Positions 36,119 to 58,311 of a DNA stretch of 64,000 nt are shown here, piece by piece (position 1 is the stretch's first letter; every line of letters begins with the position of its first letter). The stretch spans positions 58,512 to 122,511 of the forward strand of contig JAHDYR010000050.1 in the NCBI GenBank assembly GCA_019828565.1, in the 5' to 3' direction. The notes under the pieces were generated by a model. It worked only from the letters and a program-made list of their open reading frames with translations. It ran no database searches and was not told the origin of the DNA. The translations under genes and the position numbers were made by a program. This DNA is from Carpediemonas membranifera BICM (taxonomy: Eukaryota > Protista > Fornicata).

Positions 36119-37133
36119 GCTGTTTTTTCTGGTACTTTAACCGGGACTTAAAGTCCCGGAATAAGTCCCGGAATACATGAAAAAAGGACGATTGCAAGAA
36201 AAAATGAACGCGCTCAAACAATTAAACTACAGCGTATTACGCCTTGCACTTGCACAAGGCATCGTTTAGACATCCGTACAACATGCTGAAGACCTTCACT
36301 CGCGAAGTCAGTGGCATCGCACAAACTCTCGTCGAAAAACTGTCTCATGGTTCATCTAGGGTCGGGATAGACTGCCGTGCCTCCCCCACTGGTCCAGTAT
36401 GCCGAGATAAAATTTCCTGGGTGCGTAAAGATGCGACTTTTGGGAATTGCTCCCAAAGAAGTTTGCTTTTGCTCGCCAACAAAGAAGGCCGAAAGCAAGT
36501 GAGAACATCTGTGTCACATAACAACCTTTGTTCTGCATCAAATAGCAGCAAGATTGCATACGGCATCGAGTATTCTCGAGAAAACACTCAAAACTTTGCC
36601 TGGCAAACGAAAAACGATCCTAAAAGCTAATTTACCTCCAATGTCTCCAAAAGTGAGCCGCATGATGTGTATTTCTATGATCTTTGTCTTTCACCTTCAG
36701 TTCTTCTTCAAATCATCCATACGCGGCATATCAAGCATTCCTCGTCGTTTGGTCAATTCTGGCAAATCAACAAAAGGTATCCATCGGCTCAGAAGAGGCT
36801 GTGGTGGTAGCCTCGGTCCCGCTTACACCCCCGTGCGTGCCTTGTGATGAAGAAAACTTGTGATATGGCCGGAATGCACTTTATGACAAACGAATGAAGC
36901 GGGCCGAGTTTATCGCCGAAATCAAGCAAATGCGCGTTAAGCTGAGTCACTTGACTGAAATTGATGACTATTACGCCATTGCCGACGACGTTACTAAGAA
37001 TTACCTGACAGTTGCCTCAAATTTCTTACTGAAAGCTGTTCTTCGCTCGCAATAGACGTAATTGACTGTAGATTGGTGAAGATAGTGTAAACATAAAGAA
37101 CCCTTTATATACATACTCCGATTATCCATCTAT

Positions 37134-39690
37134 CTATCTTCTCGGGCGAAGATTGTGCCCAGTCCTCCTCATCAGCTCCTCCGCTCGCTGCTCACTGTTG
37201 CACAGATTGCAGATGCAGAGAGTCTCATCCAGACCACTGTCCGCCGTCCTTACACAAATCGTCTTGGCTGTCTCGTCAACAGTGATGAGTTCCCGGATCT
37301 CCTCCGGCTCCTCACAGATACCCTTGACCCATCCACTAAACAGCGCATTCAGCGACTGTTGGCTCGCCTCCTATCCCAGTTGGGTACCTTAGTTAATAGA
37401 CGATTTCTCCAGGCGGCACACCGGTCGGCATCAAATAGACACGAGCAGAATGTGACAGACTTACACTGCCTTGCAATCGGCAACACCATACCATGCTTTC
37501 TTGATGAGCCACGGCGGGTGTAGTGAGCAAGGACACGACCGACCATTGTCTTCTGAGCCAGGAAGCCGAGAACCCAAGATCGATGCTTGTCCACTCGCAA
37601 CTGGGCATTGATGAGGAAATCACGTTCGAAGTACTCCTCAAGCAAATAGAACATCGGAAGCCGCAGTTTCGAGTGAACCTTGGGCAGAACTGACACCACT
37701 GCATTCAGATATAGCGAGCCGGTAAACTTGGGAGAGTAAGTCAGTCTGAGACCATCATTGAGCGTCGTAGCAACCGAGGAGCGACTCGATGGAAGGTCAT
37801 AGAACAACGTCAAGACATGGAACATGATGAACGTAGAAAAGGACGCCGCGTGATGGAAAGCGATTGTCTGGTGTGTCACGTGGTCAGAGGAGTAATACAA
37901 CGCCTGTAACTTGGCTGTAAGGAGTATGAAGGGCTGGAGTGACTGGTCAAACTCCTCAAGGTGCTCGTTGACTAGTGTCGCGAGCTTTCGTCTGTTCCAG
38001 CTCTGCTCGTTGCAGCCAGTTGTCCGCGTGAACAGCTTTTCAATCTGCTCAAGTGTGTGCACGTTCTGACCAGCGTGTTGAACCTTGACAAGGCCAAGCA
38101 GCGTCCAGAAGTCCTTCATAAGATAGTGACTCACATGCATGACAGGTGGAATGAACGTGACATCAGCGTACTTTGTGAGCACGTGAAGTGGGCCATCTAT
38201 CTCGTTGGCATAGGTCAGACATCTCGGTGACCATCGCGGGACCCAAACCGTGTCATGTCTTTCACGCCACCAGCGTCACGAAGACGGATGCTATCTGCGA
38301 TTGTCCAGCGATCGCAACGATTGGCAAACGGGTCGCTTGCGACCTTTCCCATGTGTAGGGAGGAGAATGGAGAGCGGTAGTATCGTCCCCGCTTGACGCC
38401 ACTAACAATCTGCAACGCTTTGTGATCGCCGCAGATCCCGAGCAGGCTGATGACAACACGGCTGCGTGGGAGCAACGAACTGTCACCACATGCGAAGGGG
38501 ATACCAATGAGCTTGTTCATTAGCCGCTGTACATCATCAAAGAACGAAGGAATGAGCTTCTCTGTGCCCTGAAATGTAAGAAGCGTCATGGGTGGGGTAA
38601 TCTTCTGTGGTAGGGCTGCTCCCTCGCGATCAATTATGCGATATTTGACCGCCGTACAGTCGGCCCGATATCCATCAAACCATAGGAGCATCTCAAGACC
38701 ATAAGCCTCCTGTCGGCTCTCCGGGTTAATAGTGACGGATTGAACGAACTTGCTTGACTTGATATCGCGCTGAACTCGGTCGGGGAACTTCAGCATGAAC
38801 TTAATCTGGGCGACAGGGTCATAGGACAGAGCGCTGATCACCATCCGGTGAGATTTCTTTGTTCCACGCGGAATGATGCCCATGTTCCGGCATAATCTCT
38901 GAATCTCCGGCAGCTTGGATGGATCATCATGCGAAATGTATAGCCGTGACTCCCCCGATATCTTCTCGAAGTGGTGAGCGAAGAGGCAGTCGTGTTCATC
39001 GAGAGTCTCTTGCAGGTCGGTGTGGGTGGTTGGGTCATATAGGACGTAAAAAGCCTCCGCGACTTCCACGCTACGCGTGAAACCGGCTCCTGCTTGACAT
39101 TGAAGCTCTTGGTTAGACACCCCATCACGCCCAGAGACATCGGGCTGCTCAGGAGTGAACGCGTTGACGTCCTCGATCAGTGTTGGGTCTGATATAACAG
39201 ATCGTATGGCTGGGATGGACAGCAGGTCATACCCAAGATTCTGGAGACTGTCTACCACCGGTGGAGTGTGAATTCCAAGGCGAACTCCCATGTCGGAGGC
39301 CATTGAAACAAATGCATGGCGGAGTCGGTCGTAGCGATTCTTCCCTAACTCGACGGCACAGATAATTGCCATGGCCGTGTATAGGCTCTTCGTCTTCGCC
39401 TCGTTGTCGACTCGCGTAACAGTCACATGAGCAGTGCTGTGATTCCTCATCAATGCGCTCCAATCAGCATTAACGACTGCACTACGTAACGTAGCATCAC
39501 TATGTGTCACCCTCAGTGGACATGACGTCAGGAAATCTCGGAGAATGCGCAAGCACTGCTCCTTGCTGTCTAAACGAAACGATTTGTCGCGGTTTCGGAG
39601 CAGAAACTCGTCTAAGACAGCGGTGATGATATATCCAAGAGAACTGTCCGCCCCATAGGTGATGACGACTTCCCAGTTCTCGAAACGCAT
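37134..39690 (-). pseudogene. RAG1/Transib/Chapaev-like DDE transposase, copy 2 (frameshifted)
   Basis: ORFs 38215-39690 and 37349-38182: LWFDGY, ICGDHK, YRSPF, PPVMH, RTTGCNE, LLEEYFERDF; collinear with copy 1. Acidic tail to a stop at 37134. Confidence 0.62.
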
Positions 39691-39835
39691 TGCTTCAATA
39701 GCAATAGGATAAATTTACAAAGTAAATACACAAATGTGCTGATGTAGGGCATGGTGGCGGATCTGGCGCTGGTGGCGGACGTGGAGACACTGGGGGTGCT
39801 CCACAACCACGTCCACTGCAAGGGTGACTCATGTA

Positions 39836-40094
39836 GAGTCGCCCGAAAAGCAGAAGCATGCGGACAACACAATAGAGGATGATTCAGAGATCGAGACAAG
39901 TGGTAAGAGGGTGAGGACTGAGTAAATGGATTGCAAATGAGTCTTTTTAATGTCTCACCACCTGTTTGGGCCTCAGCGCTGTCGTTCAGGCCAATCCACG
40001 TTTGTGGATCCGTGCAGTTTATGGCTTATCGACCGGACATCTCCTGAACTGAGCGCCAGGGGGCGGAGGTGGCGTTGGCGTGGGGCGTGGAGGC
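39836..40094. repeat. Inverted copy of 61382-61640 (and 63195-63453)
   Basis: Reverse-complement match read directly from the sequence. Confidence 0.9.
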
Positions 40095-40095
40095 A

Positions 40096-40879
40096 TCAGT
40101 GGCTTCTTCCAGCCAAGTGAACAAGTCTAGCATCGTATATCGCCAAGAGACGTTAAATGGTTACTAAAAGTTTATGTATATCGCCTGCGGCTTGTCAGAA
40201 CTCATACCGTGACTACCACCAGCCGTCATCACACCCCTAGCCCTACCCACACGTCCATTCTCTCCGATGCTGATTAAATCGTCCGGCCAGCGAGCCGGGG
40301 CCTTTCGCAAATTTAATATGGCCAAGAGACGTTATCTGCGGCTGAAAAGAGCCCCATATAACCCCCTATGAAGTTATACGGAGAAATCATCGCCGATTTT
40401 CACGTTTCGGCGAGCTCCGGCCAAGGGGTCCAGGAGTCAGCTTTTGGGGGAAGGTCTGTGGTGCTATAACGTACCTCGGGACGCACTGTGGAGGCCCCTA
40501 GAGTGCTCGGTCATGGCATGTCAGACCAAGGGTCCCTCAAATCTGGCCCCATTCAGGATGCACCCCCTAAATGTTCCGTTGCAAGCGTCTGACGGGCGTT
40601 CTCTGGATACCGACCAAGATGGAGGTCACGTGGATCAACGGACGATAATTACGGTATTCTGGCCATGCCTGGTACTCTCAAATCATCTATACTGCTCAGT
40701 GCTCCATTTATAGTTCATATCGTTTCGTCCTGATGGACTTATGGTACTTGATGTTGTTTAGGGATAATTGTTGCTTTAATGATGCTCTGCGCCCGCATAC
40801 TGATGTTTCTTAGTGTTGTGCACATGCCTACTACGTTAAAGCCGCCAGTATTCTTTCTATTCTTAAGATCCTCATTTCA
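40096..40879. repeat. 784-bp direct copy of 57041-57824 (OTU gene start and upstream region)
   Basis: Near-identical sequence; substitutions concentrated in the right half. Confidence 0.93.
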
Positions 40880-41537
40880 TTTTTTTGACGACGCGTCGAG
40901 ACAATTCATGCGTGCGCAGGGTACTAACAGGCTCAAACAACAGCTCTGTCTGAGTAGACGCCTCCTCTAGGTCTCGCACAGTCTGAGTCTCTGCATGCTC
41001 ACCCTGCGGCGAAAACTGCTGGCATTTTCCCACCATCCTCGGCTTATCAGGATCAGGACCCAGCGCAGTCATGTAAACAGGTACCTCAACCCGCTTCTCG
41101 ACTATCCTGACAGGCTGGGAGTCCCTGCGGGAAGGGGCTTGCGGGTGAACTCGCGTCCTGGTCGGCCCCCCGTTCGCCTCGTTGTGCAGAGCCTCCATGA
41201 AGGCATTGAAGCCGTCATCACGGCCCACCTTCTGCGTCACAAACGACATGACGCATGTGACCGACATCTCAAAGGATGCAAAATCGTCAGCACTGGAAAC
41301 ATCGCGATTGTGGCAGATTGAGTTTCGAGCTGCCAACAGCTCGCGTATATGTCTCTTATCAGCGTGGTGAAGATCAGGAACACGATGTAGGATCGCTTGC
41401 AAAAGCATAGCCGGATCCATCTCGCCACCGTCACCACGGTACCTCGCGATGTACTCCTGCAGCTTCGGAATCATCCTCAGTAGCGCTTCAAACATCATGC
41501 TGGCGTATCCTGCTGAATCCTTCACCCCAGAGCTCAT
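40872..41537 (-). pseudogene. HEPN protein copy 1, C-terminally truncated
   Basis: ELLAARNSICH retained; zinc finger lost at the array edge. Confidence 0.75.
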
Positions 41538-41841
41538 ATCGGTTTCTTCAGAACGAAATTCTAAAGAAATGTTCGGTGGTAAGTGAGATCACTGCGCATC
41601 TAGAGACAGCAGAAACGTAACCTACAGCCCATATTGATGTGGGCTGGTCTTATCCGGATGTCCAAGGACCTTGATTCGCTCTGGGGTAGTCCCCCCATGA
41701 CCGTCAGGCACGCGAACCGCATCCTGCACGAAGCGGGGATGCAGAGTCTGAAAAAGACCCATCTCTCTGTCCGATCTGGATACCCCCTGACGATAGATGG
41801 AATGAATGAAGCTGTAAACATATCCATTGACTCTGAATCTT

Positions 41842-42770
41842 TTATTTCTCCATCTGCGAGTTAAGCCAGGCCACTGCCTTTCCCGTCAGATATACCTTAC
41901 GCGTGTCGTGCACCTTCTTTGTTGCTCTTGCGGCTGAAGCATCAACAGTGGCCTGCTTCAACAAATCTCGGCAGCTAGACTTCGGCGTCTTGGTGCCACG
42001 CCGCGTGCAGGCCCACTCTCTATCGTCCACGGACTCACCACACACAACGCATGACCCTGCGAATACGGTCGGTGGCTTCTCCTTCAGCTTCTGTCGAAGC
42101 AGATCGCACATCGCGGTCTTGACGACGCGTCGAGACAATTCATGCGTGCGCAGGCTACTAACAGGCTCAAACAACAGCTCTGTCTGAGTAGACGCCTCCT
42201 CTAGGTCTCGCACAGTCTGAGTCTCTGCATGCTCACCCTGCGGCGAAAACTGCTGGCATTTTCCCACCATCCTCGGCTTATCAGGATCAGGACCCAGCGC
42301 AGTCATGTAAACAGGTACCTCAACCCGCTTCTCGACTATCCTGACAGGCTGGGAGTCCCTGCGGGAAGGGGCTTGCGGGTGAACTCGCGTCCTGGTCGGC
42401 CCCCGTTCGCCTCGTTGTGCAGAGCCTCCATGAAGGCATTGAAGCCGTCATCACGGCCCACCTTCTGCGTCACAAACGACATGACGCATGTGACCGACAT
42501 CTCAAAGGATGCAAAATCGTCAGCACTGGAAACATCGCGATTGTGGCAGATTGAGTTTCGAGCTGCCAACAGCTCGCGTATATGTCTCTTATCAGCGTGG
42601 TGAAGATCAGGAACACGATGTAGGATCGCTTGCAAAAGCATAGCCGGATCCATCTCGCCACCGTCACCACGGTACCTCGCGATGTACTCCTGCAGCTTCG
42701 GAATCATCCTCAGTAGCGCTTCAAACATCATGCTGGCGTATCCTGCTGAATCCTTCGCCCCAGAGCTCAT
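41842..42770 (-). pseudogene. HEPN protein copy 2, 1-bp deletion in a C-run
   Basis: Split into 42336-42770 and 41842-42306; may be a sequencing error. Confidence 0.7.
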
Positions 42771-43071
42771 ATCGGTTTCTTCAGAACGAAATTCTAAAGA
42801 AATGTTCGGTGGTAAGTGAGATCACTGCGCATCTAGAGACAGCAGAAACGTAACCTACAGCCCATATTGATGTGGGCTGGTCTTATCCGGATGTCCAAGG
42901 ACCTTGATTCGCTCTGGGGTAGTCCCCCATGACCGTCAGGCACGCGAACCGCATCCTGCACGAAGCGGGGATGCAGAGTCTGAAAAGACCCATCTCTCTG
43001 TCCGATCTGGATACCCCTGACGATAGATGGAATGAATGAAGCTGTAAACATATCCATTGACTCTGAATCTT

Positions 43072-44001
43072 TTATTTCTCCATCTGCGAGTTAAGCCAGG
43101 CCACTGCCTTTCCCGTCAGATATACCTTACGCGTGTCGTGCACCTTCTTTGTTGCTCTTGCGGCTGAAGCATCAACAGTGGCCTGCTTCAACAAATCTCG
43201 GCAGCTAGACTTCGGCGTCTTGGTGCCACGCCGCGTGCAGGCCCACTCTCTATCGTCCACGGACTCACCACACACAACGCATGACCCTGCGAATACGGTC
43301 GGTGGCTTCTCCTTCAGCTTCTGTCGAAGCAGATCGCACATCGCGGTCTTGACGACGCGTCGAGACAATTCATGCGTGCGCAGGCTACTAACAGGCTCAA
43401 ACAACAGCTCTGTCTGAGTAGACGCCTCCTCTAGGTCTCGCACAGTCTGAGTCTCTGCATGCTCACCCTGCGGCGAAAACTGCTGGCATTTTCCCACCAT
43501 CCTCGGCTTATCAGGATCAGGACCCAGCGCAGTCATGTAAACAGGTACCTCAACCCGCTTCTCGACTATCCTGACAGGCTGGGAGTCCCTGCGGGAAGGG
43601 GCTTGCGGGTGAACTCGCGTCCTGGTCGGCCCCCCGTTCGCCTCGTTGTGCAGAGCCTCCATGAAGGCATTGAAGCCGTCATCACGGCCCACCTTCTGCG
43701 TCACAAACGACATGACGCATGTGACCGACATCTCAAAGGATGCAAAATCGTCAGCACTGGAAACATCGCGATTGTGGCAGATTGAGTTTCGAGCTGCCAA
43801 CAGCTCGCGTATATGTCTCTTATCAGCGTGGTGAAGATCAGGAACACGATGTAGGATCGCTTGCAAAAGCATAGCCGGATCCATCTCGCCACCGTCACCA
43901 CGGTACCTCGCGATGTACTCCTGCAGCTTCGGAATCATCCTCAGTAGCGCTTCAAACATCATGCTGGCGTATCCTGCTGAATCCTTCGCCCCAGAGCTCA
44001 T
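43072..44001 (-). CDS. Swt1-like HEPN domain protein with C-terminal Cys cluster, copy 3
   Basis: MDPAMLLQAI..HIRELLAARNSICH (Rx4H); CVVC..C..C. Confidence 0.78.
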   Translation of the reverse strand: MSSGAKDSAGYASMMFEALLRMIPKLQEYIARYRGDGGEMDPAMLLQAILHRVPDLHHADKRHIRELLAARNSICHNRDVSSADDFASFEMSVTCVMSFVTQKVGRDDGFNAFMEALHNEANGGPTRTRVHPQAPSRRDSQPVRIVEKRVEVPVYMTALGPDPDKPRMVGKCQQFSPQGEHAETQTVRDLEEASTQTELLFEPVSSLRTHELSRRVVKTAMCDLLRQKLKEKPPTVFAGSCVVCGESVDDREWACTRRGTKTPKSSCRDLLKQATVDASAARATKKVHDTRKVYLTGKAVAWLNSQMEK

Positions 44002-44304
44002 ATCGGTTTCTTCAGAACGAAATTCTAAAGAAATGTTCGGTGGTAAGTGAGATCACTGCGCATCTAGAGACAGCAGAAACGTAACCTACAGCCCATATTG
44101 ATGTGGGCTGGTCTTATCCGGATGTCCAAGGACCTTGATTCGCTCTGGGGTAGTCCCCCCATGACCGTCAGGCACGCGAACCGCATCCTGCACGAAGCGG
44201 GGATGCAGAGTCTGAAAAAGACCCATCTCTCTGTCCGATCTGGATACCCCTGACGATAGATGGAATGAATGAAGCTGTAAACATATCCATTGACTCTGAA
44301 TCTT

Positions 44305-45234
44305 TTATTTCTCCATCTGCGAGTTAAGCCAGGCCACTGCCTTTCCCGTCAGATATACCTTACGCGTGTCGTGCACCTTCTTTGTTGCTCTTGCGGCTGA
44401 AGCATCAACAGTGGCCTGCTTCAACAAATCTCGGCAGCTAGACTTCGGCGTCTTGGTGCCACGCCGCGTGCAGGCCCACTCTCTATCGTCCACGGACTCA
44501 CCACACACAACGCATGACCCTGCGAATACGGTCGGTGGCTTCTCCTTCAGCTTCTGTCGAAGCAGATCGCACATCGCGGTCTTGACGACGCGTCGAGACA
44601 ATTCATGCGTGCGCAGGGTACTAACAGGCTCAAACAACAGCTCTGTCTGAGTAGACGCCTCCTCTAGGTCTCGCACAGTCTGAGTCTCTGCATGCTCACC
44701 CTGTGGCGAAAACTGCTGGCATTTTCCCACCATCCTCGGCTTATCAGGATCAGGACCCAGCGCAGTCATGTAAACAGGTACCTCAACCCGCTTCTCGACT
44801 ATCCTGACAGGCTGGGAGTCCCTGCGGGAAGGGGCTTGCGGGTGAACTCGCGTCCTGGTCGGCCCCCCGTTCGCCTCGTTGTGCAGAGCCTCCATGAAGG
44901 CATTGAAGCCGTCATCACGGCCCACCTTCTGCGTCACAAACGACATGACGCATGTGACCGACATCTCAAAGGATGCAAAATCGTCAGCACTGGAAACATC
45001 GCGATTGTGGCAGATTGAGTTTTGAGCTGCCAACAGCTCGCGTATATGTCTCTTATCAGCGTGGTGAAGATCAGGAACACGATGTAGGATCGCTTGCAAA
45101 AGCATAGCCGGATCCATCTCGCCACCGTCACCACGGTACCTCGCGATGTACTCCTGCAGCTTCGGAATCATCCTCAGTAGCGCTTCAAACATCATGCTGG
45201 CGTATCCTGCTGAATCCTTCGCCCCAGAGCTCAT
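44305..45234 (-). CDS. HEPN protein copy 4 (motif R to Q)
   Basis: AQNSICH. Confidence 0.75.
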   Translation of the reverse strand: MSSGAKDSAGYASMMFEALLRMIPKLQEYIARYRGDGGEMDPAMLLQAILHRVPDLHHADKRHIRELLAAQNSICHNRDVSSADDFASFEMSVTCVMSFVTQKVGRDDGFNAFMEALHNEANGGPTRTRVHPQAPSRRDSQPVRIVEKRVEVPVYMTALGPDPDKPRMVGKCQQFSPQGEHAETQTVRDLEEASTQTELLFEPVSTLRTHELSRRVVKTAMCDLLRQKLKEKPPTVFAGSCVVCGESVDDREWACTRRGTKTPKSSCRDLLKQATVDASAARATKKVHDTRKVYLTGKAVAWLNSQMEK

Positions 45235-45538
45235 ATCGGTTTCTTCAGAACGAAATTCTAAAAGAAATGTTCGGTGGTAAGTGAGATCACTGCGCATCTA
45301 GAGACAGCAGAAACGTAACCTACAGCCCATATTGATGTGGGCTGGTCTTATCCGGATGTCCAAGGACCTTGATTCGCTCTGGGGTAGTCCCCCCATGACC
45401 GTCAGGCACGCGAACCGCATCCTGCACGAAGCGGGGATGCAGAGTCTGAAAAAGACCCATCTCTCTGTCCGATCTGGATACCCCTGACGATAGATGGAAT
45501 GAATGAAGCTGTAAACATATCCATTGACTCTGAATCTT

Positions 45539-46468
45539 TTATTTCTCCATCTGCGAGTTAAGCCAGGCCACTGCCTTTCCCGTCAGATATACCTTACGCG
45601 TGTCGTGCACCTTCTTTGTTGCTCTTGCGGCTGAAGCATCAACAGTGGCCTGCTTCAACAAATCTCGGCAGCTAGACTTCGGCGTCTTGGTGCCACGCCG
45701 CGTGCAGGCCCACTCTCTATCGTCCACGGACTCACCACACACAACGCATGACCCTGCGAATACGGTCGGTGGCTTCTCCTTCAGCTTCTGTCGAAGCAGA
45801 TCGCACATCGCGGTCTTGACGACGCGTCGAGACAATTCATGCGTGCGCAGGGTACTAACAGGCTCAAACAACAGCTCTGTCTGAGTAGACGCCTCCTCTA
45901 GGTCTCGCACAGTCTGAGTCTCTGCATGCTCACCCTGTGGCGAAAACTGCTGGCATTTTCCCACCATCCTCGGCTTATCAGGATCAGGACCCAGCGCAGT
46001 CATGTAAACAGGTACCTCAACCCGCTTCTCGACTATCCTGACAGGCTGGGAGTCCCTGCGGGAAGGGGCTTGCGGGTGAACTCGCGTCCTGGTCGGCCCC
46101 CCGTTCGCCTCGTTGTGCAGAGCCTCCATGAAGGCATTGAAGCCGTCATCACGGCCCACCTTCTGCGTCACAAACGACATGACGCATGTGACCGACATCT
46201 CAAAGGATGCAAAATCGTCAGCACTGGAAACATCGCGATTGTGGCAGATTGAGTTTTGAGCTGCCAACAGCTCGCGTATATGTCTCTTATCAGCGTGGTG
46301 AAGATCAGGAACACGATGTAGGATCGCTTGCAAAAGCATAGCCGGATCCATCTCGCCACCGTCACCACGGTACCTCGCGATGTACTCCTGCAGCTTCGGA
46401 ATCATCCTCAGTAGCGCTTCAAACATCATGCTGGCGTATCCTGCTGAATCCTTCGCCCCAGAGCTCAT
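45539..46468 (-). CDS. HEPN protein copy 5 (motif R to Q)
   Basis: AQNSICH. Confidence 0.75.
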   Translation of the reverse strand: MSSGAKDSAGYASMMFEALLRMIPKLQEYIARYRGDGGEMDPAMLLQAILHRVPDLHHADKRHIRELLAAQNSICHNRDVSSADDFASFEMSVTCVMSFVTQKVGRDDGFNAFMEALHNEANGGPTRTRVHPQAPSRRDSQPVRIVEKRVEVPVYMTALGPDPDKPRMVGKCQQFSPQGEHAETQTVRDLEEASTQTELLFEPVSTLRTHELSRRVVKTAMCDLLRQKLKEKPPTVFAGSCVVCGESVDDREWACTRRGTKTPKSSCRDLLKQATVDASAARATKKVHDTRKVYLTGKAVAWLNSQMEK

Positions 46469-46770
46469 ATCGGTTTCTTCAGAACGAAATTCTAAAGAAA
46501 TGTTCGGTGGTAAGTGAGATCACTGCGCATCTAGAGACAGCAGAAACGTAACCTACAGCCCATATTGATGTGGGCTGGTCTTATCCGGATGTCCAAGGAC
46601 CTTGATTCGCTCTGGGGTAGTCCCCCCATGACCGTCAGGCACGCGAACCGCATCCTGCACGAAGCGGGGATGCAGAGTCTGAAAAGACCCATCTCTCTGT
46701 CCGATCTGGATACCCCTGACGATAGATGGAATGAATGAAGCTGTAAACATATCCATTGACTCTGAATCTT

Positions 46771-47701
46771 TTATTTCTCCATCTGCGAGTTAAGCCAGGC
46801 CACTGCCTTTCCCGTCAGATATACCTTACGCGTGTCGTGCACCTTCTTTGTTGCTCTTGCGGCTGAAGCATCAACAGTGGCCTGCTTCAACAAATCTCGG
46901 CAGCTAGACTTCGGCGTCTTGGTGCCACGCCGCGTGCAGGCCCACTCTCTATCGTCCACGGACTCACCACACACAACGCATGACCCTGCGAATACGGTCG
47001 GTGGCTTTCTCCTTCAGCTTCTGTCGAAGCAGATCGCACATCGCGGTCTTGACGACGCGTCGAGACAATTCATGCGTGCGCAGGGTACTAACAGGCTCAA
47101 ACAACAGCTCTGTCTGAGTAGACGCCTCCTCTAGGTCTCGCACAGTCTGAGTCTCTGCATGCTCACCCTGTGGCGAAAACTGCTGGCATTTTCCCACCAT
47201 CCTCGGCTTATCAGGATCAGGACCCAGCGCAGTCATGTAAACAGGCACCTCAACCCGCTTCTCGACTATCTTGACAGGCTGGGAGCCCCTGCGGGAAGGG
47301 GCTTGCGGGTGAACTCGCGTCCTGGTCGGCCCCCCGTTCGCCTCGTTGTGCAGAGCCTCCATGAAGGCATTGAAGCCGTCATCACGGCCCACCTTCTGCG
47401 TCACAAACGACATGACGCATGTGACCGACATCTCAAAGGATGCAAAATCGTCAGCACTGGAAACATCGCGATTGTGGCAGATTGAGTTTCGAGCTGCCAA
47501 CAGCTCGCGTATATGTCTCTTATCAGCGTGGTGAAGATCAGGAACACGATGTAGGATCGCTTGCAAAAGCATAGCCGGATCCATCTCGCCACCGTCACCA
47601 CGGTACCTCGCGATGTACTCCTGCAGCTTCGGAATCATCCTCAGTAGCGCTTCAAACATCATGCTGGCGTATCCTGCTGAATCCTTCGCCCCAGAGCTCA
47701 T
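46771..47701 (-). pseudogene. HEPN protein copy 6, 1-bp insertion before the zinc finger
   Basis: Extra T near 47006; Rx4H intact. Confidence 0.7.
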
Positions 47702-48003
47702 ATCGGTTTCTTCAGAACGAAATTCTAAAGAAATGTTCGGTGGTAAGTGAGATCACTGCGCATCTAGAGACAGCAGAAACGTAACCTACAGCCCATATTG
47801 ATGTGGGCTGGTCTTATCCGGATGTCCAAGGACCTTGATTCGCTCTGGGGTAGTCCCCCCATGACCGTCAGGCACGCGAACCGCATCCTGCACGAAGCGG
47901 GGATGCAGAGTCTGAAAAGACCCATCTCTCTGTCCGATCTGGATACCCCTGACGATAGATGGAATGAATGAAGCTGTAAACATATCCATTGACTCTGAAT
48001 CTT

Positions 48004-48933
48004 TTATTTCTCCATCTGCGAGTTAAGCCAGGCCACTGCCTTTCCCGTCAGATATACCTTACGCGTGTCGTGCACCTTCTTTGTTGCTCTTGCGGCTGAA
48101 GCATCAACAGTGGCCTGCTTCAACAAATCTCGGCAGCTAGACTTCGGCGTCTTGGTGCCACGCCGCGTGCAGGCCCACTCTCTATCGTCCACGGACTCAC
48201 CACACACAACGCATGACCCTGCGAATACGGTCGGTGGCTTCTCCTTCAGCTTCTGTCGAAGCAGATCGCACATCGCGGTCTTGACGACGCGTCGAGACAA
48301 TTCATGCGTGCGCAGGGTACTAACAGGCTCAAACAACAGCTCTGTCTGAGTAGACGCCTCCTCTAGGTCTCGCACAGTCTGAGTCTCTGCATGCTCACCC
48401 TGCGGCGAAAACTGCTGGCATTTTCCCACCATCCTCGGCTTATCAGGATCAGGACCCAGCGCAGTCATGTAAACAGGTACCTCAACCCGCTTCTCGACTA
48501 TCCTGACAGGCTGGGAGTCCCTGCGGGAAGGGGCTTGCGGGTGAACTCGCGTCCTGGTCGGCCCCCCGTTCGCCTCGTTGTGCAGAGCCTCCATGAAGGC
48601 ATTGAAGCCGTCATCACGGCCCACCTTCTGCGTCACAAACGACATGACGCATGTGACCGACATCTCAAAGGATGCAAAATCGTCAGCACTGGAAACATCG
48701 CGATTGTGGCAGATTGAGTTTCGAGCTGCCAACAGCTCGCGTATATGTCTCTTATCAGCGTGGTGAAGATCAGGAACACGATGTAGGATCGCTTGCAAAA
48801 GCATAGCCGGATCCATCTCGCCACCGTCACCACGGTACCTCGCGATGTACTCCTGCAGCTTCGGAATCATCCTCAGTAGCGCTTCAAACATCATGCTGGC
48901 GTATCCTGCTGAATCCTTCGCCCCAGAGCTCAT
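48004..48933 (-). CDS. HEPN protein copy 7
   Basis: Intact 309-aa ORF with RNSICH. Confidence 0.78.
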   Translation of the reverse strand: MSSGAKDSAGYASMMFEALLRMIPKLQEYIARYRGDGGEMDPAMLLQAILHRVPDLHHADKRHIRELLAARNSICHNRDVSSADDFASFEMSVTCVMSFVTQKVGRDDGFNAFMEALHNEANGGPTRTRVHPQAPSRRDSQPVRIVEKRVEVPVYMTALGPDPDKPRMVGKCQQFSPQGEHAETQTVRDLEEASTQTELLFEPVSTLRTHELSRRVVKTAMCDLLRQKLKEKPPTVFAGSCVVCGESVDDREWACTRRGTKTPKSSCRDLLKQATVDASAARATKKVHDTRKVYLTGKAVAWLNSQMEK

Positions 48934-49476
48934 ATCGGTTTCTTCAGAACGAAATTCTAAAGAAATGTTCGGTGGTAAGTGAGATCACTGCGCATCTAGA
49001 GACAGCAGAAACGTAACCTACAGCCCATATTGATGTGGGCTGGTCTTATCCGGATGTCCAAGGACCTTGATTCGCTCTGGGGTAGTCCCCCCATGACCGT
49101 CAGGCCCGCGAACCGCATCCTGCACGAAGCGGGGATGCAGAGTCTGAAAAGACCCATCTCTCTGTCCGATCTGGATACCCCTGACGATAGATGGAATGAA
49201 TGAAGCTGTAAACATATCCATTGACTCTGAATCTTTTATTTCTCCATCTGCGAGTTAAGCCAGGCCACTGCCTTTCCCGTCAGATATACCTTACGCGTGT
49301 CGTGCACCTTCTTTGTTGCTCTTGCGGCTGAAGCATCAACAGTGGCCTGCTTCAACAAATCTCGGCAGCTAGACTTCGGCGTCTTGGTGCCACGCCGCGT
49401 GCAGGCCCACTCTCTATCGTCCACGGACCCACCGCACACGGCATTCATGATTCCAAGGTCTAATTATTTACTCGAT

Positions 49477-51006
49477 TTATTCCGGCACCTCGTTGAGCAG
49501 GAAATAGTGCACTTTCAGGCGAGCATATCTCACTCTAGACACGCTGCACTTGACCACCTTAGCCACGCCATCGCAGTCACCCACAACATCATACCACTGC
49601 CCTTCTGTGTCGCATAATGCGTACACACGCTCATATGTCTGATAGACAGCTGTTGCCTCAAAGGGCATATCTAGCGTACAATCGTCCTCGCAAATATGGG
49701 TGCAACCAGGAGACACCCAAATCAGCCGCCAGGGGAAAAACAACACCGCCTTTACATTCAAAGGGAATGCAATCGGCGTTGCTGTGAGGCATTTCTCGCG
49801 CTGCTGGTATTCAGGCAGTAGGCCAGACTGGGCGATATGTTGGGGAACCACACCGGCGAACAGGAGTTGACTGCCGCTGAGGAAGACGTTGCAGCGACAG
49901 TCTGCCATGAGCTGGTCGACCCTGAACGGCAGCTTTTCGAAGCCCCGTATACATCTATCGCGTCCAAGTCCCAGCTTATAGTGGCGGTTGAAATCGCTGA
50001 TTACCTGCTGATCGCCCGCGGAGAGGATAACTGTCCCCCCTCCATACATGATCCGATCAGGGATGAAGCCAGTGGGCACAGCGACTGGGTGGAAGACGTA
50101 TCTTCTCAGATCGTCATGAACTGTGAAGCATGCACCGTTTCCAGCCATGACAGTTCCGACTGGGGTGAGGATGAACCTGCGACAAGCCTGCTCCGACACA
50201 TCGATCACCATCCTGTTCTTCTCCCAGGGGGGCAGACTGGCCTCGAGCTCGGCGATATTAGGGCAGCTGGTGAAGGTTAGGCGGGTCGCATTCCAGAGCC
50301 AGTCCAAGCTCCATGCCCACAGACCCTTAGGTGTCCTGGCAAGATGGCTGCAATTGCAACTGTAGACCTCGAGGGCCCTGGGCATCCTGGCTCTAATGAA
50401 GATGGCGAGGTTGTCTGGACGAAGCATGAATAGACGGCCCATGTACATGCGGTGATGGTAGTGTGTGTTCCCATTTGAGAATTGGTAGTACTCGCCGTCC
50501 TTCTCGGCGACGTTCAGTGTGAAGAAGAACTTGCGGCAGAGGAACCGGAGACACTTGCCCTCGGGGGCGAGAGCATTTCGGATGAGGTCCTGGAGGTCTG
50601 GGTTGGCCCCTCCACCCATAAGACACGCCCACACCGCGCCCTGGTTCAGTGTGTGCATGGCTGCCGGGAGCTCATCGCCAGGCGAGAGCTCGACGTTCAT
50701 GGACAGCGGGGGGCCGCTGGTGAGGATCGAGCGGGCGTGATCTAGGAGGACTTGTGCGGTTGGTTCAAGCGGGGGGATCTTGGAGAGCGTGGCGAGGAGG
50801 GATTCGAGAGAAGGGGCGCTCGCTGGTGCAGTAGTGCTCTCTGCGTTGTGGATCGAGGGCATCTCCTCGCCAAAATGCCTGGTGTAGGCGCATTGGAGCA
50901 AGGATGGTACGTCCCCGGAGATACGGGCTGCTACAACTAGCGAGGCGCGGAATACGGAGATAAGGGCTTCTTTGATGGCTGATGGGGAGGAACTAGCACT
51001 GCTCAT
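49477..51006 (-). CDS. Divergent RCC1-like beta-propeller family protein
   Basis: Repeat-like LARTPKGLWAW, FILTPVGTVMAGN and DFNRHYKLGLG (cf. G-N-x2-GQLG); paralog at 1420-3137. Confidence 0.6.
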   Translation of the reverse strand: MSSASSSPSAIKEALISVFRASLVVAARISGDVPSLLQCAYTRHFGEEMPSIHNAESTTAPASAPSLESLLATLSKIPPLEPTAQVLLDHARSILTSGPPLSMNVELSPGDELPAAMHTLNQGAVWACLMGGGANPDLQDLIRNALAPEGKCLRFLCRKFFFTLNVAEKDGEYYQFSNGNTHYHHRMYMGRLFMLRPDNLAIFIRARMPRALEVYSCNCSHLARTPKGLWAWSLDWLWNATRLTFTSCPNIAELEASLPPWEKNRMVIDVSEQACRRFILTPVGTVMAGNGACFTVHDDLRRYVFHPVAVPTGFIPDRIMYGGGTVILSAGDQQVISDFNRHYKLGLGRDRCIRGFEKLPFRVDQLMADCRCNVFLSGSQLLFAGVVPQHIAQSGLLPEYQQREKCLTATPIAFPLNVKAVLFFPWRLIWVSPGCTHICEDDCTLDMPFEATAVYQTYERVYALCDTEGQWYDVVGDCDGVAKVVKCSVSRVRYARLKVHYFLLNEVPE

Positions 51007-51387
51007 CGATTCCAGCGCTCAGTTCGGTGGCGACTTGTTCTCGTTCTTAAACTGCTCAATGAGAAAGGATGACAGCAGAAACGACGTCCTGGAGGACGTC
51101 CTGGTGTTGGGAGGGGGTGTTCTTGAGCACGTGATAGTGGACGGCCTTGTTGGTGGGCGCGGCCCATGAGAAGCACCAGCGCAAGTAAAGCATTTTGCAA
51201 TATATTACTTGCGTTTGCGCTGTCGTTCCTCCGGGCGCACTTCCCCGGCCGCTCTTTGACACGGACATTGCCGTGGGGCCTCCTCCTCGTAGCTGTTTCC
51301 TCCCCGGGTTCTGTAAATGGTGTGTTTTGATTCATCTGTCCCTTTGTTTGTCTCGGCGTTGAACTTTGAAAGCAATAAATGGCTACG

Positions 51388-51627
51388 ATCAAGATATTAT
51401 TGTCCAATGAGGCTCTTTACATCGCCTTCTAGCTCGATATTGATGTTGTTAGTGATTTTCTAGAGTACAGCACCAGTTTCGGTAATAGGGGGACAGACGA
51501 GCGCAAACAACTACATGGCTCCGAACTACACGCGTCTCGGCGTTGATATTGGTTATTAAATGGACTGTTCGTAACATATTGAGGGATTTCGTCACTGTAC
51601 TCAAATGCACAAGTGTGCAGTTTATGC
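51388..51627. repeat. 240-bp direct repeat, copy 1
   Basis: Matches 54657-54896 with a few substitutions. Confidence 0.93.
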
Positions 51628-51708
51628 ATCTGCCGGAATCTCATTTAAGGGAGATAAAAGCGTCCTAAACAACAGGGATCTGTCAGTCATTATCAAACTT
51701 TACTTCTC

Positions 51709-52910
51709 TCACTCAGCCTCGTTGTCCCGCTTCTCCGGAGTAACCAATTGAGCCTTCCTTGTGCCGGGACGGGTGACACCAAAGACTCGGAAGAGTAAGT
51801 CGCTCGTCTGCTCCAAACCCTGGCTTTCCTCAAGCCTCAGAATGTTGTGCCGGATCTTATCTCGGTCCTGGTCTTGAAGATGCCCGAGCTCAGCGTTCAG
51901 CCTGTTATCAAAGGCTTGGCTGAAGATGAGCACGGAATGGGCCAGGGTTAGGGGCACAGCTTGGTGACTTGCAAGCTCGCGGAACTCCTTTGGCCAGAGA
52001 ATGGCGTACTTGATCATTTTGGCGTACTTACGCCGCACATTGTGGGTCTTGATGGAACTCATCTCGTGGATGCGCTTGTAGATGCCATCACATTAGGTGT
52101 TCTTGCCAACGCGCCCAGCCAGTACATCGGCACGTAAACGTTCGGCTGCGGCGTCAAGACGGGCGACCCTACCTCATCGTCGACGGGCATCGCTCCACGC
52201 TTCCCTGCGATCGTGTACAGCTCCAGCTGCCAAGCAATCATGATCCGCAGCATCATCTCGCGTGTTGCACCAGACGTCATTGTCTCTAGCATGAGTTCCA
52301 GGCGGTGTTCATCCATGTAGCCAGACTGAATGACAGTAAGCGTCGTCATAGCACTGGATACTGGCGCGATAATGCCGCCATACCAAGGCTCCTCCTTGAG
52401 CACCGCGGTAACATCGAATGTCTCAAGGGTGAGATCAATCTTGGGCTTCTTCTTCTTGTCCTTCTTGCTCGCCGAAGGCTGCCCCTCACCCTCACCTGAT
52501 GCTTCTTCGCCAGCCTTGCCCACACCCTCGGCCGATGCCTGTCCCTCCCTGGTGATAGAACCATCTACTTGGCAGCTCCGACGTGCGAAGCGCCTCGTAG
52601 ACGGGATTGCTGCTTCTTGTATGTTCTCTGCAGCCACCACAACATCGCTTGTGCTCTCAAGAGGCTTTTGCTTGCGCTCTGTCAGCATCTCGACGACGTT
52701 CTCGTGAACACGGTGCTTCAGAACATCAACAACGCCTTCAGTGCGATACTTAGGCTCAATGCTGAAGTAACAAATCAATGCATGCACGATCTGGCGCTTT
52801 GATCCTTCCATCTCTTCGTCTCTTTCGTTCATTCGGAAACCGTTAAATAAACCATGGAATGGGTGGAACATGCGAGTGATCCAGACCTCAAGCGTGTCTA
52901 CGCACGGCAT
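51709..52910 (-). CDS. Hypothetical protein(s); two abutting ORFs, possibly one frameshifted gene
   Basis: 52059-52910 and 51709-52062 overlap by 4 nt; NLS-like KKDKKKKPK. Confidence 0.5.
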
Positions 52911-52977
52911 CTTGCTGCATAAATGACTGTTTATTGCCCAAATTTTGTGTTGCGGCGTGACCGAATCGAACTAGAAC

Positions 52978-53637
52978 ATGAAGCTCACCAACAAGGCAGA
53001 TACTGTGATTACGGCGGAGGAATACCAGCAATACTACTCCTCTGATGACTTTGAGTCATTTGTTGCGGCCTGTGATGAAGCAGGCATTCGTTCTGCCCAC
53101 AGCACCACGTTCTCCGTCACAGTGGACAAGAATGGCTTCAACAGCGAGCTAGATCTGGCCATGGTGCCTCAGCATGCGCTTATGGGTCCGACAGTGGGCG
53201 ATGGTATCCTTACCAACAAGAGCATCCCCAACGACGCAGTCATTGGCATATACTGCGGCAAGATCATCCCCGAGCCCGAACCTGGTGCAGTCACGACCTA
53301 CGTGACGAGGCTCAAGAAGCCTAACAACTTTGCTGTTGACTCGGCCGGCCTCACGTTCGGCTGTCACAAGATCAACGATGGTGCCGCTTTCTACAACGTC
53401 GTACCGGGGACGGCCTACGTTAATGTGCAGGTGGGGGACCAGAAGAAGCGTCTTCCCGTCATTCTTTACTTGGCGGATCGCGCTATTGCCAAGTTCGAGT
53501 ACCTCTCGATCGAGTATGGCGAGCAGTACTGGCGTGGACGCAAGCCCATGGCCCTCTACCCCTTCTGTCTGGAGAAGATGCTTGCTGAGGCTGAGTATGA
53601 GGAGATCAACGATGTCTTAGACGCCGTTCTCTCCTAA
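52978..53637 (+). CDS. Stand-alone SET-domain lysine methyltransferase-like protein
   Basis: GDGILTNKSIP..IGIYCGKI, CHKIND, ADRAIAKFEYLSIEYGEQYW. Confidence 0.88.
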   Translation: MKLTNKADTVITAEEYQQYYSSDDFESFVAACDEAGIRSAHSTTFSVTVDKNGFNSELDLAMVPQHALMGPTVGDGILTNKSIPNDAVIGIYCGKIIPEPEPGAVTTYVTRLKKPNNFAVDSAGLTFGCHKINDGAAFYNVVPGTAYVNVQVGDQKKRLPVILYLADRAIAKFEYLSIEYGEQYWRGRKPMALYPFCLEKMLAEAEYEEINDVLDAVLS

Positions 53638-53810
53638 CCTAAATTGAGATCCCAACAATTCATTGCTTTCAAAAGTTCAAGGGTCCTTCTACCTGGCCCA
53701 TCATCACTGGGATCCTCGTGCTTGGCGCCCACATCCCCGATGTCACCCAAAAAGATCTAGAATTTTCCGAAAATCGGCTTCCGACAATTTTCATTGATCC
53801 CTGACGCTCG

Positions 53811-54656
53811 ATGGAACTGGATATTGCGTATCAACTGGTTGCTCTGAAGGAGATGAAGTCTATTGAGTCTCTTAAGATCAATTCCATCACGATTCAGAAG
53901 GAAAAGGTCCGGAAAGCTGTCATTCTTGCTTTCGCGCAGTCTCCCGCGGGTAAGAAGTGGGTAACGAGCACACTGAGGCTCTGTGCTGACCGCTACAGCG
54001 CTTCGATCCAGTACAACGTGCAGAGCATGTTGTTTGGCATGAACTCCAACGCCACATTCAACGAGGAGGCAGCAATAGCGACTCTGCGCGTTCATGAGAG
54101 GCTCTTGACCCCGCTACACCAGTCAGTCTTCGCTAACATGGTCAGGGCCAAGCACACGACACCGACTCTAGACGATTTCCTCGATACCGCGTGTGTCTTC
54201 CCGACTTTTACTGAGTTGGATCGCCTTGCCGCATGGGTGGGTGAGCGCAACCCCAGTGTCTGGGTCATCATGACGGAGGCTCGTATTACTGGCGTTTTAG
54301 ATGGTGAGATCTATGAGCCGCTGCTTCGGGCCGTTGCTGACGACGTTGATAGATTCACGTTCGGCAGCCCTGAAAAGTTCCTCCAGTTAACCGACACGAG
54401 CCTTGACTATGCCGTCGAGAGTGTCCAGATCAAGGACTATGCCAATCGTCGCTGCCTTGTCAAGTGGATCGGGTATCCTGTGCCTGTCACCGTTCCGCTG
54501 ACCGATACGTTGCGTGAGCTGGAGGCTGGGGAAACCTCGGGGTTTGTGGGCTTGCGACGGGAGATAACCTTCTCTGGGCGGGGTCGTACAACCGGGGAAA
54601 TTCAGAACAATCTTTTCAGGCGTCGGGAACCCGAGCCTGACGTTTCTGAGGAGTAA
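53811..54656 (+). CDS. Protein with C-terminal chromodomain
   Basis: DYAVESVQ..RCLVKWIGYP..TVPL. Confidence 0.7.
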   Translation: MELDIAYQLVALKEMKSIESLKINSITIQKEKVRKAVILAFAQSPAGKKWVTSTLRLCADRYSASIQYNVQSMLFGMNSNATFNEEAAIATLRVHERLLTPLHQSVFANMVRAKHTTPTLDDFLDTACVFPTFTELDRLAAWVGERNPSVWVIMTEARITGVLDGEIYEPLLRAVADDVDRFTFGSPEKFLQLTDTSLDYAVESVQIKDYANRRCLVKWIGYPVPVTVPLTDTLRELEAGETSGFVGLRREITFSGRGRTTGEIQNNLFRRREPEPDVSEE

Positions 54657-54896
54657 ATCAAGATAATATTGTCCAATGAGGCTCTTTACATCGCCTTCTA
54701 GCTCGATATTGATGTTGTTAGTGATTTTCTAGAGTACAGCACCAGTTTCGGTAATAGGGGGACAGACGAGCGCAAACAACTACATGGCTCCGAACTACAC
54801 GCGTCTCGGCGTTGATATTGGTTATTAAATGCACTGCTGGTAGCATATTGAGGGATTTCGTCACTGTACTCGAATGCACAAGTGTGCAGTTTATGC
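54657..54896. repeat. 240-bp direct repeat, copy 2
   Basis: Matches 51388-51627. Confidence 0.93.
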
Positions 54897-55065
54897 TTTC
54901 TCGGCCAGCCGACGATATTTACCACCACAGACAGCTGCATACAGGCTGTAGACTAGACATATACAGCAGGCTGAGTAATATAGCACCATACCCCCTACAA
55001 ACCGCGAATCAACCTCAAAGTCACATAAACATAAGCGATACGGTCGGTATATCAATCCTTTACTC

Positions 55066-57078: not shown

Positions 57079-57824
57079 CGTATATCGCCAAGAGACGTTA
57101 AATGGTTACTAAAAGTTTATGTATATCGCCTGCGGCTTGTCAGAACTCATACCGTGACTACCACCAGCCGTCATCACACCCCTAGCCCTACCCACACGTC
57201 CATTCTCTCCGATGCTGATTAAATCGTCCGGCCAGCGAGCCGGGGCCTTTCGCAAATTTAATATGGCCAAGAGACGTTATCTGCGGCTGAAAAGAGCCCC
57301 ATATAACCCCCTATGAAGTTATACGGAGAAATCATCGCCGATTTTCACGTTTCGGCGAGCTCCGGCCAAGGGGTCCAGGAGTCAGCTTTTGGGGGAAGGT
57401 CTGTGGTGCTATAACGTACCTCGGGACGCACTGTGGAGGCCCCTAGAGTACTCGGTCATGGCATGTCAGACCAAGGGTCCCTCAAATCTGGCCCTATTCA
57501 GGATGCACCCCCTAAATGTTCCGTTGCAAGCGTCTGACGGGCGTTCTCTGGATACCGACCAAGATGGAGGTCACGTGGATCAGGGGATGCGAATTGCGGT
57601 ATTCTGGCTATGCCTGGTACTCTCAAATCATCTATACTGCTCTTTGCTCCATTTATAGTTCATATCGTATGGTCCTGGTGGACTTATAGTTGTTGATGTT
57701 GTTTAGGGATAATTGTTGCTTTAATGATGCTCTGCGCCCGCATACTGATGTTTCTTAGTGTTGTGCACATGCCTACTACGTTAAAGCCGCCAGTATTCTT
57801 TCTATTCTTAAGATCCTCATTTCA
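57041..57824. repeat. Source or sister copy of 40096-40879
   Basis: Direct repeat. Confidence 0.93.
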
Positions 57825-58100
57825 GTCTCGTTGCGAGCATAAAGTGCACATTGTGAAAGGAAATTGGGTGGTTATATAATGGATACAGGGCAGGAAAAGG
57901 TACACGAATGCCGTCCTGAGGTTTGGCATGGGATACTGATCTCATACGTCAAAAATGGGCGGTGGTATTCGAATTTCAGAATTTCGGCATGTCCGAATTC
58001 CGAGGCAAGCGGGTAGGGTGTACAAAACCTGGCCTGGGTCCCTACTGGAGCTAATAGATAACAGTATCACCGTGTATTCGGTTTTCAGAAATATAACTTG

Positions 58101-58298
58101 TGTTGGTATTGCAATTTCAGAATTACTTCCAGTACCGGAGATTGTCTTAGAATTTGGATGTTCATGACTACTTTAAAATTTTAAAAAGTTCCCATGAACC
58201 CACTCCAGCTCAGGATTGCGGATCTGAGCCAAGTTTAGGTCGAATCCAAGTATTTGATAATTTTGTATGTACGAAATTCTGAAATTGCAATACCAACA
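58101..58298. repeat. Perfect 24-bp inverted repeat (58101-58124 / 58275-58298)
   Basis: TGTTGGTATTGCAATTTCAGAATT and its reverse complement. Confidence 0.9.
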
Positions 58299-58311
58299 GA
58301 AAACTCGTGTT

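Follow-up and report, generated by a model that had tools for sequence, protein, structure and literature searches.

A near-identical tandem array of a predicted HEPN ribonuclease gene, likely cargo of a multicopy island, in Carpediemonas membranifera

What kind of gene does a eukaryote carry seven times in a row, nearly unchanged, and why should two adjacent copies have exchanged the arginine of a catalytic motif for glutamine? These questions are raised by a tandem array of a HEPN gene at positions 40885-49428 of a 64,000-nucleotide stretch of contig JAHDYR010000050.1 from Carpediemonas membranifera BICM (the whole stretch analysed is called the window below). The window is eukaryotic, and all of the relatives that we found are labelled as belonging to this species. 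We read the locus as a seven-unit array of a multicopy HEPN gene that is likely the cargo of an island and encodes a predicted dimeric ribonuclease (RNase), the Arg71 to Gln change (R71Q) being an ordinary mutation, and we give this joint reading a probability of roughly 0.55.

The seven units are near-identical, have exact boundaries and start 1230-1234 bp apart (a unit of ~1.23 kb); when aligned in pairs they differ by 0-5 substitutions and 0-4 indels. Each carries on the minus strand an ATG-started copy of one HEPN gene, whose full product has 309 residues. As assembled, the full length is encoded by four of the seven only: copies 3 (43072-44001), 4 (44305-45234), 5 (45539-46468) and 7 (48004-48933). 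Copy 1 (40872-41537) is cut at residue 218 and gives a product of 221 residues, copy 2 (41842-42770) is frameshifted in a C6 run near residue 125 and gives 144 residues, without the TQT motifs described below, and copy 6 (46771-47701) is frameshifted at residue 233 and gives 245 residues. The HEPN domain is whole in all seven, the shortened ones included. A 3' remnant of an eighth copy is found at 49236-49448 (minus strand; residues 243-309, with E246G as in the dispersed copy P0013 and a diverged 5' edge), so that the array falls 85 bp short of seven complete units: it begins and ends inside the open reading frame (ORF), and those 85 bp are present only six times. The seven copies described in the initial annotation thus stand as units, with the corrections that full length is confined to copies 3, 4, 5 and 7 and that an eighth remnant is present.

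The assignment of the protein to the HEPN superfamily draws on modest scores that converge and on the two motifs that define the superfamily, Ex3[KR] and Rx4-6H with a polar residue after the Arg (PMC3710099). In copy 7 the domain spans residues 1-121 (48571-48933, minus strand). The first motif is E17-A-L-L-R21 in the array protein and E-T-L-L-R in P0003, a 45% identical paralog from another contig. The second reads RNSICH (R71 to H76) in copies 1-3, 6 and 7, that is in five of the seven, and in all eight of the dispersed copies that cover the site; it is RNEACH in P0003 and is altered to QNSICH in copies 4 and 5. The Pfam family HEPN_Swt1 (PF18731) was matched with E 0.006 by the whole protein and E 0.0013 by the domain alone, at 17.3-19.4 bits, and family members as a whole scored 15.3-19.4 bits, all under the gathering cut-off of 27.5 bits. 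By Atlas features, residues 1-125 come to 0.89-0.91 with clusters that are partly HEPN_DZIP3 (11%), DUF4559 (11%) and HEPN_Swt1 (20%), while by Atlas structure the nearest entry is a DZIP3-like HEPN (TM 0.67), and most of the 10 structure rows that have a family are HEPN or its nucleotidyltransferase-associated relative. When the all-helical AF2 model was aligned with VIA-align to 48,161 chains, HEPN domains filled most of the top ranks at Z 7.4-8.6, headed by the Cas nuclease 9fcv (Z 8.6, rmsd 2.8, 93 residues aligned) and including the Swt1 C-terminal domain 4pqz (Z 7.7), the HEPN toxins 8xdj (Z 7.7) and 7ae2 (Z 7.5), and 2hsb (Z 7.6).

Several points weigh against leaning on the fold scores by themselves. 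The AF2 model was built from two sequences and has a pLDDT of 57.8, unrelated helical chains occur among the top VIA-align rows, Z values of 7-8.6 fall in the range that the tool describes as common for helical bundles, Foldseek with the HEPN model returned nothing at E<=0.001, and none of the structural matches would decide the matter by itself. When E17xxxR21 and R71-N-x3-H76 are added to these scores, however, HEPN membership is, in our judgement, secure, and the protein is predicted to be a dimeric ribonuclease. The locus had been annotated as Swt1-like HEPN; the HEPN fold is borne out by the VIA-align ranks, the Atlas placement and both motifs, but we did not retain the Swt1 family label, the Pfam score being below the cut-off. 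An orthologue of Swt1 was also rejected, since Swt1 joins a PIN domain to a HEPN dyad with an inactive motif, whereas here there is a single HEPN with an intact motif and no PIN match.

The gene is not confined to the array. A protein search gave three clusters among 1792 candidates, all labelled C. membranifera, and HMMER with the HEPN domain against 1.84 billion representatives recovered the same three clusters only, with none outside the species at E<=0.001. By cluster look-up there are 11 records beyond the window, on eight other contigs and at nine loci, comprising P0003 and 10 near-identical records, of which all eight that cover residue 71 keep the Arg. Tandem and dispersed HEPN copies are 97-100% identical, and P0003, at 55% divergence, still has the two HEPN motifs, TQT repeats and five C-terminal Cys residues. 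One dispersed record, P0002, joins a HEPN domain identical to that of the array over residues 1-131 to an unrelated tail and is a rearranged copy. No HEPN relatives were found in metagenome contigs, viral contigs, PDB sequences or PHROGs, nor in PADLOC, where the one match was an irrelevant Cas6. A prokaryotic candidate, L001, was discarded as a 16-residue chance match inside an unrelated protein. Among the literature matches listed, none dealt with this HEPN gene or the island around it.

How the array grew can be read from its variants. Seven coding single-nucleotide polymorphism (SNP) sites are present: A5V in copy 1; R71Q in copies 4 and 5; D139G, R144K and a silent change at V152 in copy 6; a silent change at P177 in copies 4-6; and T206S in copies 2 and 3 (in copy 2 at the DNA level). 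Five are missense and two silent, and there is no sign of purifying selection among the copies. All three SNPs common to at least two copies lie in contiguous copies (P=0.038 under random order, 5040 orders), as expected from unequal exchange. F201 is found in all seven array copies and V201 in all eight dispersed records that cover the site, which indicates local growth of the array from a single founder. The haplotype of copy 6 is a mosaic: D139G, R144K and the frameshift at residue 233 occur together as on other contigs, while F201 is that of the array. A5V of copy 1 is likewise shared with the dispersed copy P0007. This sharing points to exchange between loci or to cross-talk during polishing. 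The placement of the variants in the initial annotation (Ser/Thr in copies 2-3, Arg/Gln in the adjacent copies 4 and 5 only, a silent change in copies 4-6) was correct in each case, and its proposal of recent unequal crossover agrees both with the contiguous blocks and with the array-wide F201. We thus picture a single F201-marked founder that would have multiplied on the spot through unequal exchange; dispersed copies would have converted parts of copy 6, and the left end would have been cut by rearrangements at a later stage.

Two other origins were considered. That the ORF arose de novo by fusion where two units meet was rejected, because P0003 is collinear across residues 219-243. A multimeric circle, opened once and integrated, would explain why the two array ends are no more than 85 bp apart on the unit; it was not adopted because such a coincidence has a 7-14% probability by chance and because the junction at the left end is recent and distinct.

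Between the HEPN domain and the C-terminus, the linker of the array protein contains two TQT anchors, at residues 184 and 195 (48343-48384, minus strand, in copy 7), and that of P0003 contains three, at residues 183, 195 and 207. In the corresponding shuffles at least two TQT appeared in 19 of 20,000 (P ~0.001) and at least three in 39 of 20,000 (P ~0.002), and TQT does not occur in 8681 residues of other local proteins. TQT is the anchor of motifs that bind LC8, the dynein light chain (PMC6607443), and the spaced motifs, newly noted here, are candidate LC8 dimerisation sites. Since the HEPN active site is composed of two domains (10.1101/760058), dimerisation aided by LC8 may be the route of activation. 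Among the 10 of 35 literature matches listed there was no LC8-dimerised HEPN RNase. Two facts count against the idea, one being that TQ is also a PIKK phosphorylation motif. The other is that many TQT peptides do not bind LC8, the anchor alone being insufficient (PMC6607443). Beyond the linker lies a Cys-rich C-terminal module (C222, C241, C244, C255 and C267; 48133-48270, minus strand), possibly a Zn ribbon, with all five Cys kept in P0003 and a faint likeness to the C-terminus of the neighbouring kinase (8 of 17 residues identical).

To the right of the array follow a 509-residue ORF (49477-51006, minus strand) and a 400-residue ORF frameshifted in a G run (51709-52910, minus strand), each of which also adjoins a HEPN record on another contig; a weakly SET-domain-like ORF (52978-53637, plus strand; Pfam E 0.044, EHMT1/2 at E 0.15-1.3) that is identical on three contigs; ORFs of 281 and 670 residues; a 326-residue tyrosine-recombinase-like (YR-like) ORF with degenerate catalytic motifs, which serves as a marker of the island (58267-59247, plus strand); and a protein kinase (E 2e-23) with a C-terminal Cys-rich ribbon (59673-60977, plus strand). 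To its left is a DDE-transposase-like gene broken by two frameshifts (37131-39690, minus strand), and between that gene and the array lie two captured pieces of the same island. One (40096-40879) is a 97.8% copy of 57041-57824, with 5 extra T at the junction with the left end of the array, and the other (39823-40094) is an inverted copy of 61382-61650, the 3' end of a 226-residue gene.

The same neighbours recur elsewhere, synteny being judged from gene numbers. At four of the eight HEPN loci that could be placed, a YR-like gene lies within 8 genes (8, 2, 3 and 7 genes away; P ~3e-4 under uniform gene placement), and at two further loci the 509- or 400-residue ORF is directly adjacent. With recurring neighbours at six of nine loci, the HEPN gene is likely the cargo of a multicopy mobile island that also carries transposase-like, kinase and SET-like genes. 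The selfish or conflict context that the initial annotation had proposed fits this dispersal over contigs and these recurring neighbours. The dispersal itself, like the eukaryotic nature of the window and the TQT linker, had escaped that annotation.

In the Atlas the YR-like ORF comes to 0.94-0.95 with tyrosine-recombinase (Phage_int_SAM) clusters, but its counts of shared features stay below the 170 mark of the tool; its family has 25 members in nine clusters, all in C. membranifera and labelled hypothetical or 'retinal rod', and none of the nine proteins scanned has a DUF3435 or integrase match in Pfam. The family carries what we take to be an AT-hook-like GRP motif. In the window the ORF stops early, at 59247 in the region 58267-59508, its relatives reaching 410-413 residues, and a 34-nt inverted repeat (88%) at 58098-58301 overlaps its start with the right arm. 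The transposase-like gene has intact 854-residue relatives on five other contigs, and at three of the five a YR-like gene is no more than 8 genes away. A 30% paralog shares D339, D422 and an E near 691, which may form a DDE triad; the family member P0018 has H521-x2-H524 and the paralog H-x2-HH, with no CxxC after D422. Its model has a pLDDT of 40, the top Foldseek rows are mostly RNase H-like but all at E>0.2, and VIA-align on the core gave Z<5. Conservation at the D, D, H and E positions hints at a DDE transposase in the 854-residue family.

Against the island as a single mobile unit stand several observations. The genes may lie together because the regions are rich in repeats and not because they form one unit, and the P value of ~3e-4 overstates the case if repeats cluster. 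Two of nine other HEPN loci are without the listed neighbours, and one merely lies on the same contig as YR-like genes. The YR-like ORF shows no catalytic Arg, His or Tyr at the positions usual for the family. The transposase call combines motifs with a non-significant RNase H-like tendency. Finally, no element ends, terminal inverted repeats (TIRs) or target-site duplications (TSDs) were found in the window, and around the transposase-like gene, whose flanks are rearranged, there are no inverted repeats above 10-12 bp.

On an alternative view the array is an unexpressed or neutral passenger of a repeat-rich region produced by segmental duplication and template switching; it would then be neither the cargo of one mobile unit nor, at present, the source of a working effector. 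Of the alternatives this survives best, although we consider it unlikely. The region does hold other fresh duplications (40096-40879, 39823-40094, 51388-51627 and a tandem of period 1813) and many broken retroelements, three of the seven HEPN copies are truncated, the ends of an element were not found in the window, and other foreign-looking genes of this species are without expression in RNA-Seq (PMC8516963). Against it stand the conservation of the HEPN motifs, TQT repeats and five Cys across 55% divergence, the recurrence of the same neighbours at other loci, and a second island, 30% diverged, that again pairs the 509-residue and transposase-like families.

On the reading that we prefer, an amplified island cargo, the protein would be an RNase with a single active site made by a pair of HEPN domains. 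Host LC8 would hold two chains together through the spaced TQT motifs, and the Cys-rich tail may aid targeting. Its role would most likely be that of a conflict effector of the island, cutting the RNA of viruses or rival elements, or silencing RNA of the host.

The R71Q copies bear on how such an enzyme might be tuned. The change is a single CpG transition, CGA>CAA (C>T on the plus strand at 45023 in copy 4 and 46257 in copy 5), and is absent from all eight near-identical dispersed copies that cover the site. Once the gene had been amplified, selection could have favoured the change because it suppresses a toxic RNase made in excess, acting directly and through mixed dimers with no need of an antitoxin, a scenario that we find distinctly improbable. 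The probability that at least one of seven array SNPs alters R71, N72 or H76 by chance is 3.1-5.6%. Two figures favour selection and tell against our own reading: one of only three array-private shared SNPs falls on the catalytic Arg (chance 1.4-2.5%), and Gln is present in two of the four full-length copies. R71Q was, in addition, found only where the gene is amplified. Counted over the family, one of 17 missense changes lies in the motif (two of the 17 are doubtful tail changes), with a chance of 10-18%; and since the array was flagged afterwards for R71Q itself, all of these figures amount to a weak signal. Loss of units would also be a simpler way to lower the dose.

The initial annotation had suggested that dead copies damp toxicity in heterodimers. 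With seven copies equally expressed, we compute 51% R/R, 41% R/Q and 8% Q/Q dimers, and if only the four full-length copies dimerise, 25, 50 and 25%. In Las1, the WT|R1E' and WT|R1K' dimers are still nuclease-active, one of them with an extra cut site (10.1101/760058). By this precedent only Q/Q dimers are expected to be dead, which undercuts the damping model, although other HEPNs may differ. Mixed R/Q dimers would then stay active, perhaps with shifted cut sites, and the Q copies would lower total activity modestly. Given this and the CpG transition, we regard the damping proposal as weak; the two Q copies likely represent one ordinary point mutation spread to the neighbouring unit, and we infer that it is neutral.

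A third alternative, about as doubtful as selection for R71Q, is that long-read assembly and short-read polishing introduced consensus errors into a repeat, and that these account for the copy number, for the frameshifts and possibly for R71Q. All six indel sites between units are changes in homopolymer length, and R71Q itself turns TTTC into TTTT. Neighbouring genes break at G runs where their relatives are intact (run lengths being inferred from the proteins of the relatives), and the published assembly of the species, from which the window may derive, was built from MinION R9.4 reads and polished by Nanopolish and Pilon (PMC8516963). Against such errors, the SNPs lie in contiguous blocks (P=0.038), several of these SNPs co-segregate with haplotypes elsewhere, as in copy 6, and an array of 8.5 kb can be spanned by long reads. 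The frameshift at residue 233, moreover, is confined to the G139/K144 haplotype (four of four carriers), like an inherited allele. Errors may nevertheless lie behind the frameshift of copy 2 and the indels of the spacers.

This leaves the spacer, in which a 67-residue ORF had been put forward as an antitoxin candidate. The frame (minus strand; 49018-49221, 47786-47989 and 46553-46756) is intact in three of the seven spacers, the others encoding 40, 40, 74 and 75 residues through homopolymer differences. An ATG-started ORF of at least 67 residues arises in 2.8% of spacer shuffles (5.4% on either strand), and the codon score of 0.035 is intermediate between the non-coding mean of -0.066 and the coding mean of 0.114. 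The ORF has no Pfam match and is absent from the protein collection. Of 11 other local genes, counted among the island genes at 49477-61551, 6 have WGTRAA close to the stop codon (-4 to +20), against 2.7% expected. WGTRAA is the Giardia-type poly(A) signal, reported only in Giardia among the species tested (PMC11529991), and our count suggests that this signal type reaches C. membranifera, a free-living relative. The nearest match of the HEPN gene to WGTRAA is AGTCAA, which overlaps the ATG of the spacer ORF, while the ORF has no such signal of its own. The spacer is therefore probably non-coding, made up of 3' untranslated region (UTR) and promoter, the 67-residue ORF is probably not a gene, and we would assign the spacer no antitoxin. 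That each unit is a pair of HEPN toxin and 67-residue antitoxin is accordingly highly implausible: the ORF length and intermediate codon score speak for it, but the frame is intact in three of the seven spacers, matches nothing in Pfam or the protein collection and starts in the likely poly(A) signal of the HEPN gene, and the units have no conserved adjacent antitoxin gene (MNT or other).

The array belongs to a known kind, the eukaryotic HEPN expansion, and adds to it a TQT linker and an island context that are unreported. Solo Swt1/Ava_2192-like HEPNs have expanded in Daphnia (46 copies), Naegleria and dictyostelids and have been proposed to be defensive RNases (PMC3710099). As in those expansions, the gene studied here is eukaryotic and multicopy, with an intact Rx4H and a predicted defensive endoRNase function. 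The earlier cases are presented as solos and diverged paralogs, whereas the present copies are 97-100% identical, both tandem and dispersed, and the protein has a TQT linker and Cys-rich tail and sits in transposase-like/YR-like islands. The nearest Atlas clusters are the animal DZIP3-like and DUF4559 HEPNs (features 0.91, TM 0.67-0.69), to which the CXorf38 family may be added (PMC3710099). These are often fused to ROC-COR, NACHT, DEATH or dsRBD sensors, whereas the array protein is without a sensor NTPase. With the Las1 homodimer it shares the R-polar-x3-H motif and, by prediction, a composite active site; Las1, however, is an essential single-copy rRNA-processing enzyme, activated by Grc3, with RHxhTH in place of RNxxCH (10.1101/760058). 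In carrying several TQT anchors along a linker, here as candidate sites, it resembles multivalent LC8 clients such as ASCIZ (PMC6607443).

The island invites comparison with two kinds of large element. Like CMCT transposons (Plavaka, and EnSpm with TET/JBP), it occurs in many copies and sets a candidate DDE-like transposase beside chromatin-related cargo (PMC12730594). It differs from them in that there is no C(2)C motif, the H spacing in P0018 is non-canonical, no CA..TG termini or TSD were found, and the cargo includes HEPN, a kinase and a degenerate YR-like gene. Like Starships, it has tens of kb of cargo and a YR-related gene; it differs in having no DUF3435 match and no evident YR catalytic set in the YR-like ORF, and Starship YRs are reported only from Dikarya fungi (PMC11162782). 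A more speculative view, improbable in this complete form, would see here an undescribed family of large cargo transposons in a free-living metamonad, with a DDE-like transposase, a degenerate YR DNA binder, a kinase, SET and PHD, whose HEPN RNase effector is switched on by dimerisation through host LC8 and tuned by tandem copy number and by mutants of the catalytic Arg, which would re-target mixed dimers without killing them.

Other features of the window were recorded beside these. The second island, 30% diverged, occupies 150-5802 and contains a PHD finger (Pfam E 3e-6, ~1029-1145, in a frameshifted ORF), a paralog of the 509-residue ORF (2226-3101) and a transposase-like paralog (4078-5802); downstream of the latter, two hairpins (6396-6530, arms of 56 nt, 79%; 6674-6755, arms of 38 nt, 84%) form a possible element end. 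The segments 61086-62187 and 62899-64000 are a tandem duplication of ORFs of 226 and 245 residues with a period of 1813 bp and 99.9% identity, continuing beyond the end of the window, so the island seems prone to tandem amplification. The 3' flank of the 281-residue ORF (54657-54896) has a 97.5% copy at 51388-51627, inserted between the 509- and 400-residue genes. That ORF (53811-54656) has what we read as a chromo-like stretch, and the 670-residue ORF (55066-57078) ends in a GNC...H pattern that we take to resemble OTU proteases; both readings were made by eye, and neither found support in Pfam or the PDB. The window is rich in remains of LTR and non-LTR retroelements: at 7100-36120 there are Ty3/Gypsy-like elements, nested and with integrases that have a chromodomain, together with a non-LTR element (endonuclease at 30553, RT at 32007), most of them broken, and short LTR-like repeats pair 9184-9310 with 12339-12465 and 12532-12660 with 16829-16958. 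No capsid or ATPase gene was found in the window and no Rfam match in 36-64 kb. The YR-like and transposase-like genes have no relatives in viral or metagenome contigs, which leaves an endogenous-virus reading without support.

The array is a very young HEPN expansion, tandem as well as dispersed and with a recurring neighbourhood, and so hints at the way in which these expansions spread. If dimerisation is driven by LC8, a HEPN nuclease would have a simple switch that depends on the host. The R71Q copies are a natural test of mixed HEPN dimers, though on present evidence they are ordinary mutations. The island, of which 25 YR-like proteins are the mark in this species, may represent a cargo element that has gone unrecognised, in a eukaryote without ORC and Cdc6.

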